Origin: Alphaproteobacteria bacterium
GTDB lineage: Bacteria; Pseudomonadota; Alphaproteobacteria; SP197
Assembly (NCBI GenBank): GCA_964291415.2
Contig: OZ219917.1
Coordinates: 256,001 to 320,000 of the forward strand
DNA length: 64,000 bases
Direction of reading: 5' to 3'
Part shown: positions 37,689-39,713 of the stretch, one piece after another
Layout of the letters: every line of letters begins with the position of its first letter
How positions within the stretch are numbered: the stretch's first letter is position 1
Notes under the pieces: model-generated
The model's input: the letters and a program-made list of their open reading frames with translations, nothing else
Told to the model about the DNA's origin: nothing
The model's database searches: none
Program-made: the position numbers and the translations under genes

Positions 37689-39713
37689 TCAGGCAGGCAG
37701 TTCGCGCAACTGCTCGGTGATCCGGAACTTGAGCTTCTCGCTCGGCTTCAACGAGGGAAGCGGGGCGAAGGGCAGCGCATCGACGTAACGCTGAGGCGTG
37801 ACCTCGAGGGTGAAGTAATGGGCGATCATCAGCACGTTGATCGCCAGCTGCAGATCCATCCACCGCGCGCCGAGGCACCGGTGCGTGCCGAGCCCGTAGG
37901 GCGCGTAGCCGGGATTGCGGTGTTCGTCGCGGGGCGATGCATAGCGGTCGATGTCGAACGAGAACGGATCGGGGAAGATGTCTTCCATGTAATGCCCGGC
38001 GGTCTGGGCGATGTAGACCCGCGATCCCACCGGTATTTCATGGCCTTCCAGCACGAAGGAATTCATCACGTCCCGCAACGACATCGGAACGATCGGATAC
38101 ATCCGGAGGCATTCCATCAGAAAGCGGTGCGTGACATCCATCGAGGCCGGGTTGAAGTCCTCCGCGTCCGGATCGCCGTTCGCGAACAGGGCGTCGGCCT
38201 CGGCCCGGATCCGCTTGTAGAGCTCGGGCTGCGCCGCCATGGCGTAGACCGCGAAGCTCAGTGAGTCGCCGAGATAGACGCTCGCGACCAGTGCCGCGGA
38301 CAGCACGAATCGCAGGTTGGATTCCGGCATCAGCTGCGGATCGCTCGCGTGCAGGCTCAGCCAGTCGTCGGAGAGGGTGCGCGGACACCCGGCGCGCTGG
38401 GCCGGCGTATGGACGGCCTGGATACGCTGCAGCAGCGTATCGACAGCCCGCGCCCGGCGCTTCATCCCCGGCGTTCTCAGCATGAACCTGGGCAGTGCGT
38501 TGATGATATGGGTGGTGAGCGCGCGCTCCTTGAAGACCATCAGCTCGTCGATGATGTCCTGCGTTTCGACGTTGAGAAAGAGCGGCGAGAGCTGGGCGTT
38601 GACCATTCGTCGGTACCCGCGCACAGGGAAGGTCTCCCCGACCTTCCAGTCCGACATGTAGTGGCGGGTAAAGCGGTACATGTCGTCCAGCCGGCCTGCC
38701 AGCCGATTGCGCGAATAGGCCGGACCCATGGCCTTGCGGAGCCGGAAGTGGTCCGGGCCATCGAGCGACGGCAACACGCCGTGCGCGCCGTAGAGCCTCT
38801 CGAAGGCGGCGAAATAGCCCCCCGCCTTCAGGTGCATCCGCCCGTGACGATGCACCCATGCATTGGCCTGCGGCCCGCCGATGAAGATCATGGGTTTGCC
38901 GAAGGGCCGGCGGATCTGGAACACCGGGCCGTATTGTTCGGTCAGATCCGAGAAGAGCGCAGGGACGTTGCCGCTCCGCAGATGCCGGTTCCGCAGCACC
39001 CGGAGAAGCGGAACTGCGGGGATCGGTTTGTTCAGCGTCGAACGCCGGAGCATCGGGGTGGCGATGTTGTGCTCGACCGCGGCGGCGATGGAGCGGCCGA
39101 TCATGTCCATTCGGCAGATGAGATCGATCCGCTCCTGGGTCTCGTCATCGATATCGAACATGAAGCGGAAGACGTCGCACGTGTTGACGAGGCAAATGAC
39201 GATGATGTCCCTGGGGCCGGGAATCTCGTCGGTGAAGAGCACCTTGAGGATACGCGTTCTGACGAACTGGCCGACGGTGCCTTGCTGCGCGCCGCCGGCC
39301 AACTCCTCGTGCCACGTCGTGGCGGCCAGCGTCCAGAAATCGCCGTCGTGATGTTCCAGGACCTTCAACTCGACCAGGCGGTCGAGGGTCCGGTCGATGA
39401 TCGATTCCGCCTGGCCGGCGAGCCGTTCGATCCAGTAGACGGCATCCCGCTGAACGGTCTCCCCGGCGATTTCCTTCAAGAGGGGATCGAGCACGGCGTC
39501 GCCGGTTTCCGTCGCATCCACGAGAATCAGTGATTCGAGATCCGTGTCGATGCGCCCCATCAGCGAGAGCTCCGCAAGCGCCGCGCCGACCACGGCGCAG
39601 TTCAGATTCCAGCCCCGCACCTGGTGGAAATAGCCGGTCTGCTCGTTGAGGAGAGTCAGGATGAACTCCTCGACCAGGCTCCGCTTCTGGGTCGCCGCCG
39701 TCGAATCTGGCAT
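37689..39713 (-). CDS. GPP34/GOLPH3-like domain fused to a cytochrome P450
   Basis: The N-terminal ~210 aa (LVEEFILTLL..G, GAALAELSLMGRID, TGDAVLD, LDRLVELKVL) resemble GPP34/Vps74. The C-terminal P450 has ECLR (ExxR), FDIDRY and the PYGLGTHRCLG heme-thiolate motif. Confidence 0.88.
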   Translation of the reverse strand: MPDSTAATQKRSLVEEFILTLLNEQTGYFHQVRGWNLNCAVVGAALAELSLMGRIDTDLESLILVDATETGDAVLDPLLKEIAGETVQRDAVYWIERLAGQAESIIDRTLDRLVELKVLEHHDGDFWTLAATTWHEELAGGAQQGTVGQFVRTRILKVLFTDEIPGPRDIIVICLVNTCDVFRFMFDIDDETQERIDLICRMDMIGRSIAAAVEHNIATPMLRRSTLNKPIPAVPLLRVLRNRHLRSGNVPALFSDLTEQYGPVFQIRRPFGKPMIFIGGPQANAWVHRHGRMHLKAGGYFAAFERLYGAHGVLPSLDGPDHFRLRKAMGPAYSRNRLAGRLDDMYRFTRHYMSDWKVGETFPVRGYRRMVNAQLSPLFLNVETQDIIDELMVFKERALTTHIINALPRFMLRTPGMKRRARAVDTLLQRIQAVHTPAQRAGCPRTLSDDWLSLHASDPQLMPESNLRFVLSAALVASVYLGDSLSFAVYAMAAQPELYKRIRAEADALFANGDPDAEDFNPASMDVTHRFLMECLRMYPIVPMSLRDVMNSFVLEGHEIPVGSRVYIAQTAGHYMEDIFPDPFSFDIDRYASPRDEHRNPGYAPYGLGTHRCLGARWMDLQLAINVLMIAHYFTLEVTPQRYVDALPFAPLPSLKPSEKLKFRITEQLRELPA

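Follow-up and report, generated by a model that had tools for sequence, protein, structure and literature searches.

Proteins that join a GPP34 domain to a cytochrome P450 have been published as GPP34_L, an architecture reported for 656 of 663 long GPP34 proteins (Microbiome 2025;13:4, PMC11706023). GPP34_L was called exclusive to sponge symbionts, in which the GPP34 family is enriched, and GPP34 proteins were proposed to be secreted, to bind phosphatidylinositol 4-phosphate (PI4P) of the host, and to block phagosome maturation (PMC11706023). GOLPH3 and Vps74 are peripheral membrane proteins, and in GOLPH3 the residues W81, R90, R171, and R174 form the lining of the pocket for PI4P (PMC2806290). 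Sterol gene clusters have also been described from sponge symbionts. These include the msb locus with its bifunctional squalene epoxidase/cyclase, MsbE (PMC7074536), clusters of ERG24, CYP51, and LSS (PMC9531527), and clusters with a sterol methyltransferase (SMT) (PMC10070321).

Here we analyze a GPP34-P450 fusion gene in the window, which is the 64,000-nucleotide stretch at positions 256,001 to 320,000 (forward strand) of contig OZ219917.1, assembly GCA_964291415.2, from an alphaproteobacterium of the lineage SP197. The gene lies on the minus strand, divergent from a homologue of SMTs, and is a member of the published GPP34_L family of sponge-associated bacteria. Its architecture is already known, but the link to sterol chemistry that is described below is not published. 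Literature searches, with supplementary tables outside their scope, found no link of GPP34 to sterols or to P450 function. The words "sterol" and "steroid" do not occur in the text of PMC11706023 (its flanking-gene supplements were outside the count). "P450" and "GPP34" do not occur in the available text of PMC10070321 or PMC7074536, whose supplementary cluster-gene tables may list the P450 studied here, "GPP34" and "Golgi" do not occur in that of PMC9531527, and the available text of a preprint (10.64898/2025.12.19.695621) mentions neither P450 nor GPP34. We assign a probability of roughly 0.6 to the following explanation, taken as a whole: the fusion protein would be a cytoplasmic tailoring oxygenase that acts on a sterol or a sterol-like triterpenoid and carries an adaptor-type GPP34 domain that does not bind PI4P.

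The fusion gene

The uninterrupted reading frame from 37689 to 39758 (minus strand) encodes 689 amino acids when counted from its first ATG. That alternative start at 39758 adds 15 residues over the ATG at 39713. The later start, and thus a protein of 674 residues, is preferred because fusion homologues are mostly 672 to 676 residues long, because the fusions of two other loci (L002 and L004) begin at a methionine aligned with Met16 of the 689-residue form, and because a Shine-Dalgarno-like GGGGGAA lies 5 nucleotides upstream of the ATG at 39713, whereas none lies upstream of the ATG at 39758. The frame, the homologue lengths, and the Shine-Dalgarno-like site bear out the single uninterrupted 674-residue reading frame of a preliminary description of this DNA. 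The segment that it had singled out (39070 to 39713) corresponds to residues 1 to 215 of the 674-residue protein, which is the GPP34 domain.

Pfam places the GPP34 family (PF05719) at residues 28 to 229 of the 689-residue form (E = 9e-28; 98.1 bits against a cutoff of 29.1), or about residues 13 to 214 in the 674-residue numbering, in a match that spans positions 1 to 199 of the 201 in the profile. The P450 family (PF00067) matches the 689-residue form at E = 2.7e-32 and 112.6 bits. No Pfam family beyond these two was matched, and therefore no reductase is fused to the protein, as the preliminary description had stated. Its further statement that the protein has no transmembrane anchor agrees with a 19-residue Kyte-Doolittle scan, which found no N-terminal hydrophobic anchor or signal-like segment (type III, IV, and VI secretion signals are beyond such a sequence reading). 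The top-scoring windows of that scan are a buried core helix of the GPP34 domain, at residues 170 to 188, and the I-helix of the P450.

The two domains are not separated by a long linker, the GPP34 domain reaching the conserved IPxVxL motif of the P450 N terminus after about 10 residues. A full-length AlphaFold2 (AF2) model has a mean predicted local confidence (pLDDT) of 89.4, which falls to 65 at residues 221 to 230, in the hinge. The predicted template modeling score (pTM) of 0.86 for this two-domain model suggests that the domains are held in a fixed arrangement.

The observation that GPP34 and P450 are encoded as one gene is confirmed. Both PF05719 and PF00067 were present in all 120 homologue clusters among the matches listed (70 to 95% identity, 627 to 700 residues). 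The alignment extended over the full length in 41 of 150 listed representatives at the 50% identity level (25 to 57% identity), and all 40 loci from other genomes matched over both domains (46 to 95% identity). In two Atlas clusters (164 and 55 members), every member (100%) has both domains. In addition, Logan contigs from three runs in three studies bridge the domain junction (38981 to 39041) with no indel there, namely, X1 (38817 to 39088, 0 differences), X2 (38082 to 39083), and X3 (38824 to 39034). The homologue clusters, the loci elsewhere, the Atlas clusters, and these contigs refute the alternative, foreseen in the preliminary description, that two separate genes were merged by an assembly or frame error, an alternative to which we attach next to no probability.

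The architecture is widespread, both in homologue clusters and in metagenome-assembled genomes (MAGs) of several phyla. The 40 loci come from MAGs with the taxon labels Alpha- and Gammaproteobacteria, Latescibacteria, Poriferihabitaceae, Rariloculaceae, and Syntrophobacterales. Contigs 96 to 97% identical to the window were found in two runs, from two studies, that are labeled as sponge metagenomes; after this finding, homologue names such as "Defluviicoccus sp." were dropped as a hint of occurrence outside sponges. Runs X9 and X17, labeled as coral reef or marine metagenomes and with small shares, carry no weight in this respect, nor do the parts of the window that contigs leave uncovered count as evidence. 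An RNA library (run X22) contains pieces 88 to 98% alike to both the fusion gene and the methyltransferase gene, which is not proof of transcription.

Three loci showed variants of the gene. An Arenicellales MAG (L020) carries tandem GPP34-P450 genes (L020:5195-7297 and L020:7995-10016). A Latescibacteria MAG encodes a 514-residue, P450-only paralogue (L031, 120-1664) a few kilobases from a full fusion. At L030 (about 7050-10284) the fusion reading frame is just 372 residues long and the adjoining SMT and cyclase genes, the latter of the squalene epoxidase (SE) type, are fragmentary. The module at this locus may be in decay.

The P450 domain and the genes around the fusion

The P450 domain has the heme-thiolate motif FxxGxxxCxG, the ExxR motif, and the PERF-type arginine. 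The heme ligand Cys613, E534 and R537 of ExxR, and R590 as the PERF-type arginine are invariant in 48 aligned fusions. The nearest solved structures are Methylococcus capsulatus CYP51, CYP184A1, CYP120A1, and BM3, with template modeling (TM) scores on the target of 0.79 to 0.84 and identities of 16 to 22%. The best match is the M. capsulatus CYP51 (75 bits, E = 4.3e-20, TM score 0.83, about 21% identity).

The fusion P450 was rejected as a CYP51, since it is only 20 to 22% identical and a canonical CYP51 is encoded together with a fusion at locus L017. The cluster at L017 comprises that CYP51, which matches solved CYP51s at 354 bits (E = 1e-104), as well as ERG24, a Rieske oxygenase, an SE-cyclase, an SMT, the fusion, an MMPL transporter, DUF1329 and DUF1302 proteins, and a BNR protein. 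With a canonical CYP51 beside it, the fusion is an additional P450 and not the 14-alpha-demethylase.

The oxygen-activation motif that is usual in the I-helix of P450s is (A/G)Gx(D/E)T. This motif is missing from the fusion P450, which has SVYLGD instead. A Y-[LFMIV]-[GS]-D sequence was found at the I-helix in all 43 fusion-family reading frames of the 41 loci surveyed, and more distant fusions as well as most unfused relatives (the latter by a crude motif count) keep AG[LI]DT. The SxYxGD I-helix suggests atypical or substrate-assisted oxygen chemistry.

To survey gene context, open reading frames (ORFs) of at least 90 residues were clustered in 41 loci (the window's locus with 8 kb on either side and L001 to L040), and the recurrent clusters were named by Pfam. 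Most of the fusion genomes surveyed are MAGs. The most frequent partner within 8 kb of the fusion is an MMPL-family transporter of about 775 residues, present in 29 of the 41 loci. A Sterol_MT_C methyltransferase is present in 17 of the 41 (the window and 16 others by ORF clustering; by tblastn, 17 of the 40 loci outside the window have one). An SE fused to a squalene/oxidosqualene cyclase (about 1,120 residues) follows with 13 loci, a LolA_like protein with 12, and a Rieske/KshA_C oxygenase with 6. SMT and fusion occur in at least four different arrangements, and their identities co-vary across loci (Mantel r = 0.52, reached by 0 of 2,000 permutations). At L007 the genes for a Rieske protein, a flavin adenine dinucleotide (FAD) protein, an MMPL transporter, and a LolA-like protein are contiguous with the SMT-fusion pair. 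The LolA_like carrier matches the solved structure 3bk5 at E = 3.8e-78 and the MMPL protein matches solved MmpL4/5 weakly (E = 2.4e-7); no Bst protein is among the solved-structure sequence matches of either.

Co-occurrence extends to whole genomes. Sterol_MT_C was detected in 34 of 39 fusion-bearing genomes compared with 0 of 14 controls, and 28 of the 39 had a cyclase match, which in 26 was of the long, SE-fused type. The window's order is represented by 33 genomes. A window-type fusion is present in 11 of these, and SMT in 9 of the 11, compared with 0 of the 22 that lack the fusion; one of the 22 has a 22-bit SMT fragment with a stop. The conserved context of SMT, SE-cyclase, CYP51, and exporters backs the link to sterol chemistry that had been suggested for the window.

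Other neighbors of the fusion in the window were rejected as members of the module. These are the M20 amidohydrolase, TauD, the GlcD-like FAD oxidase, and CtaA, which are conserved only in near-identical genomes. For example, among the 40 other loci, M20 was found again in no more than 2, TauD in no more than 2, and the FAD oxidase in no more than 4, mainly the two that are 95% identical.

The methyltransferase of the window belongs to a divergent class, with EFMQFGWGES as its region I. Among SMTs that adjoin fusions, this EFM[QLV]FGW class is represented in the window and in L002, L003, L005-L008, and L033. A DF[YF]E[FY]GWG class is represented in L012, L013, L017, L029, L038, and L040, and L021 has a variant region I. 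The divergent class was found mostly in cyclase-free genomes. The second SMT of the window's own genome reads FYEYGWG and is 41% identical to the first. A promoter consensus scan of the region between the fusion and methyltransferase genes gave 2 sites compared with 0.6 expected, which is no evidence of function.

One possibility raised in the preliminary description was that the GPP34 domain scaffolds the neighboring methyltransferase into a two-enzyme complex. Such a complex would fit the strong co-occurrence of SMT and fusion, which often adjoin, and the co-variation in their divergence. However, 24 of the 41 loci have no SMT ORF within 8 kb and the MMPL gene, at 29 of the 41, adjoins the fusion more often than SMT does, two classes of SMT pair with one fusion family, and the stand-alone GPP34 genes of the window's own genome adjoin no methyltransferase. 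We consider scaffolding to be quite improbable.

The KshA_C-type Rieske oxygenase and the FAD oxidoreductase of the wider module could also indicate that the enzyme opens steroid catabolism (e.g., through CYP125/CYP142-like side-chain hydroxylation) and that the symbiont feeds on host sterols. The lack of sterol synthesis genes in the window's own genome points in the same direction. However, the methyltransferase and exporter partners, and the cyclase in 13 of the 41 loci, fit biosynthesis or tailoring better than breakdown, and SdmA, a C-4 demethylase of bacteria, is likewise a Rieske protein of the KshA_C type (PMC10070321). A catabolic role is therefore given only a slim chance.

The own genome of the window (4.44 Mb, 5 contigs, 100% complete, 9% contamination) encodes two SMTs, three stand-alone GPP34 proteins, and four paralogues of the MMPL protein of the module. 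It has no match to PF13243, nothing homologous to the SE-cyclase apart from a weak FAD match, and no canonical CYP51, the closest sequence being 24% identical. Its best-Pfam-scoring P450 (C2:52115-53401) was rejected as a CYP51 because it is CYP97/CYP3A-like; an MMPL-like frame is located at a distance of about 1 kb from that gene, a second P450-MMPL pairing (C2:52115-56002). An FAD amine-oxidase-type oxidoreductase, a Rieske KshA_C protein, an MMPL transporter, and a LolA_like protein are encoded together at C1:404.9-412.1 kb (L064:4899-12080), 113 kb from the SMT-fusion pair, and this MMPL protein is 91% identical to that of L007. The same block also contains three Pfam-free ORFs (170, 176, and 367 residues). 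Since the corresponding genes are contiguous with the pair at L007 but 113 kb away here, the module appears to be present in this genome but split, and it is detached from any core sterol pathway. The genome is essentially complete yet lacks cyclase and CYP51, and it is therefore useful for isolating the tailoring pair from the core pathway.

Fold, pocket, and charge of the GPP34 domain

A profile built from 21 bacterial GPP34 domains gave 5 matches in the PDB, all to GOLPH3/Vps74 and the best to 3kn1 (E = 8.5e-12), with Vps74 at about 5e-11. When an AF2 model of residues 1 to 245 (pLDDT 82) was searched with Foldseek, the top 8 matches were all GOLPH3/Vps74, with a probability of 1.00 and TM scores of about 0.6, and the ninth match had an E value of 0.35. 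The profile and structure comparisons thus uphold the GOLPH3/Vps74 fold that had been suggested for the N-terminal domain. A beta-hairpin projects from the model (E131-134/E143-146).

The residues that line the PI4P pocket of GOLPH3 have no basic counterparts in the bacterial domains. In the profile alignment, R90 corresponds to V42 of the fusion, in a column that holds V, I, A, S, T, or M in all 21 domains; R171 corresponds to E103, in a column of E, A, G, D, or Q; and R174 corresponds to I106, in a column of I or V. Accordingly, none of the 21 aligned domains has a basic residue at any of the three positions. The counterpart of W81 is variable and stands two residues ahead of W35, a conserved tryptophan, and the 10-residue insert that precedes R171 in GOLPH3 is missing from the bacterial domains. 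The isoelectric point (pI) of the N-terminal domain is 4.4 to 5.6 in all 21 sequences. That of the window has 37 acidic and 20 basic residues, a pI of 4.57, and a net charge of about -17.

The tip of the GOLPH3 beta-hairpin has been proposed to insert into membranes. In the fusion protein the tip is polar (HEELAGGAQQG) and modeled with low confidence, and it varies in length among homologues, some of which have it shortened or deleted.

Microsomal P450s carry a membrane anchor at the N terminus, where the GPP34 domain stands in the fusion. The preliminary description had suggested that the domain replaces this anchor, docking the P450 on the membrane via lipid head groups. The positional part of this suggestion stands, as the alignment puts the GPP34 domain in the exact place of the microsomal anchor, followed by the proline-rich motif of the P450 N terminus. 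Docking would also agree with the peripheral membrane location of GOLPH3/Vps74 (PMC2806290) and with gene context, from which the likely substrates are membrane lipids. However, the lipid-binding part is not supported, because the PI4P-pocket residues are missing, a net charge of about -17 is unfavorable for anionic bacterial membranes, and the hairpin tip is polar, of low model confidence, and shortened or deleted in some homologues. With no basic pocket residues, strong acidity, and neither signal peptide nor anchor, docking of the N-terminal domain on PI4P or anionic lipids appears unlikely, and we doubt that the domain serves as a lipid-bound substitute for the anchor.

The same features bear on the published proposal that such proteins are secreted effectors that bind host PI4P on phagosomes, so that the symbiont escapes digestion (PMC11706023). 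The N-terminal domain is a true GOLPH3/Vps74 homologue, the family is reported to be enriched in sponge symbionts (PMC11706023), and close relatives of the gene occur in runs labeled as sponge metagenomes, all of which speaks in favor of an effector. However, in all 21 bacterial domains the positions of the three arginines are nonbasic and the pI is low, and the fusion has no N-terminal signal-like hydrophobic segment (with the reservation on type III, IV, and VI signals given above). Furthermore, an intact heme-thiolate P450 requires cytoplasmic redox partners, and the conserved neighbors are genes for the tailoring and export of lipids. Both the lipid-docking model and the PI4P-effector model are weakened by the loss of the pocket and by the acidic charge, and with these further points we judge the effector role to be very improbable for the fusion protein.

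Among the stand-alone GPP34 genes of this genome, the one at C3:60112-60768 (L063:8113-8769, plus strand) lies directly after a STAS-domain gene (L063:7766-8101, plus strand) and beside an MlaD gene (L063:6794-7564, minus strand), with genes for an acyl-CoA dehydrogenase and an APH-type kinase downstream, and is thus in a lipid-transport or lipid-metabolism setting. This locus and its flanks are present in two near-identical, inverted copies, at about 60.1 kb of C3 (L056) and about 37.6 kb of C4 (L057), which may be a strain duplicate, in view of the 9% contamination, or a true repeat.

Table 1. Features of the window around the GPP34-P450 fusion gene
Feature	Coordinates	Strand	Description and basis
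GPP34-P450 fusion gene	37689..39713	-	674 residues plus stop; ORF translation, Pfam PF05719 and PF00067
GPP34 (GOLPH3/Vps74-fold) domain	39039..39713	-	Residues 1-225; Pfam, profile against PDB, Foldseek, pI 4.57
Short hinge	38979..39038	-	Residues 226-245, with the conserved P450 N-terminal motif IPxVxL at the end; alignment
Cytochrome P450 domain	37689..38978	-	Residues 246-674, pI 9.0; Pfam, invariant columns, motif blocks
I-helix motif S478-V-Y-L-G-D483	38265..38282	-	At the usual (A/G)Gx(D/E)T position
Divergent intergenic region, fusion/methyltransferase	39714..40014		301 bp; sequence
Promoter-like site	39856-39828	-	Consensus scan of intergenic region
Sterol-methyltransferase homologue	40015..41079	+	Divergent from the fusion; Methyltransf_11 and Sterol_MT_C (Pfam)
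GlcD-like FAD oxidase	42089-44116	-	About 250 N-terminal residues without a Pfam match
CtaA/COX15 protein	44800-46440	-	About 210 N-terminal residues without a Pfam match
Region of lower GC	22000-36000		GC 0.56-0.61, compared with about 0.65-0.68 in the rest of the window

Proposed role and comparison with known systems

We propose that the SMT homologue and the GPP34-P450 constitute a cassette that, judging from its conserved gene context, has probably spread horizontally. Frequent additions to the cassette would be a Rieske oxygenase of the steroid type, an FAD oxidoreductase, and a putative lipid exporter made up of the MMPL and LolA-like proteins. In many genomes it would adjoin the fused squalene-epoxidase/oxidosqualene cyclase, CYP51, and ERG24, and there the GPP34-P450 may add an extra oxidation step, distinct from that of the 14-alpha-demethylase. 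Because the own genome of the window lacks cyclase and CYP51, the methyltransferase-P450 pair would in this case tailor a sterol-like lipid that the bacterium obtains from its host or community, and export of the product could fall to the MMPL/LolA-like block that is encoded 113 kb away. The role of the GPP34 domain is less certain. It stands where eukaryotic enzymes have their anchor and is predicted to be an accessory domain that is acidic, packed rigidly, and does not bind PI4P. GOLPH3 and Vps74 recognize the tails of membrane proteins, and by analogy the domain would most likely serve as an adaptor, linking the P450 either with one of the pathway's membrane proteins or with the hand-off of a hydrophobic substrate.

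Several considerations weigh against this proposal. The functional assignment draws throughout on gene neighborhood, and the adaptor role, like the face of the P450 that the N-terminal domain would touch, is conjecture. The mapping of the pocket residues uses a profile alignment at about 19% identity, in which the conserved W35 is two positions off W81. SMT ORFs are missing within 8 kb at 24 of the 41 loci and the MMPL gene is missing at 12. At the genome level, 5 of the 39 fusion-bearing genomes have no SMT, 11 no cyclase match, and 13 no cyclase of the long SE-fused type, although absences are not proof because these genomes are MAGs. Conversely, the co-occurrence counts overstate the support, as related genomes are not independent. 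The genes next to the fusion include none for a redox partner, and in this genome the SMT-fusion pair adjoins no sterol-core gene. The SMT of the window is of the divergent EFM[QLV]FGW class rather than of the [YF]E[YF]GWG class found in cyclase clusters, and with this divergent region I the enzyme may act on something other than a conventional (delta-24) sterol. According to a 2025 preprint, desmosterol or 24-methylenecholesterol was often left unmethylated by SMTs that deviate at conserved positions.

A wider reading, which we offer only tentatively and think unlikely to hold in full, is that bacterial GPP34 domains are adaptor or hand-off modules instead of phosphoinositide sensors, and that symbionts without sterol synthesis remodel and export host sterols through the GPP34-P450 and the divergent methyltransferase. 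If so, symbionts would influence which unusual sterols sponges contain, and through these the sterane biomarkers, with no need for a de novo bacterial sterol pathway, and the SxYxGD I-helix would mark nonstandard P450 chemistry on host-derived sterols. The analysis bears on the role of bacterial GPP34 domains and on sterol modification by sponge symbionts, which matters for the debated sterane biomarkers of the 24-isopropyl and 26-methyl types. The GPP34-P450 fusion has been described as a hallmark "symbiosis factor" of sponge bacteria that would help them to evade phagocytosis. The tailoring and export cassettes, the lost PI4P pocket, the acidic domain, and the intact P450 permit a different, testable reading. 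Overall, the interpretation in the preliminary description is partly supported.

The known systems each resemble this locus in part. Human GOLPH3 and yeast Vps74 (3kn1, 9qpq, 2zih, 2zii) share the fold and the projecting beta-hairpin with the N-terminal domain of the fusion. However, that domain is only 16 to 19% identical to them, is nonbasic at the positions of R90, R171, and R174, and is without the 10-residue insert. It is acidic and fused to an enzyme, whereas GOLPH3 and Vps74 have a basic membrane face.

The M. capsulatus CYP51-ferredoxin (6mcw, 7jj1), which is the top match of the fusion P450 in both sequence and structure, is likewise a natural P450 fusion and comes from a bacterial sterol pathway. 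The I-helix of the GPP34 fusion differs from it, and the fused partner is not a redox domain. BstA, BstB, and BstC of M. capsulatus also combine an inner-membrane transporter of the RND/MMPL type with a lipid carrier of the periplasm, and their genes accompany sterol genes (PMC10942540). Here, in contrast, the carrier is LolA_like, the MMPL protein has its weak match in MmpL4/5, and there is no sequence match to Bst proteins among solved structures.

The sterol clusters of sponge symbionts (PMC7074536, PMC9531527, PMC10070321) share an SE-fused cyclase, CYP51, ERG24, a Rieske/SdmA-like gene, and SMT with loci related to that of the window. The fused epoxidase-cyclase that is encoded near the fusion is the arrangement published as MsbE (PMC7074536). 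Unlike these clusters, the own genome of the window has the tailoring pair only and no core pathway.

The closest relatives are the GPP34_L proteins (PMC11706023), which have the same two-domain architecture and size and are distributed over many phyla of sponge-associated MAGs. Their genomes also contain short, stand-alone GPP34 genes, as does this one, with three. Compared with the published reading of GPP34_L, the PI4P pocket is not conserved here, and the genes around the fusion are those of sterol-type lipid tailoring and export.

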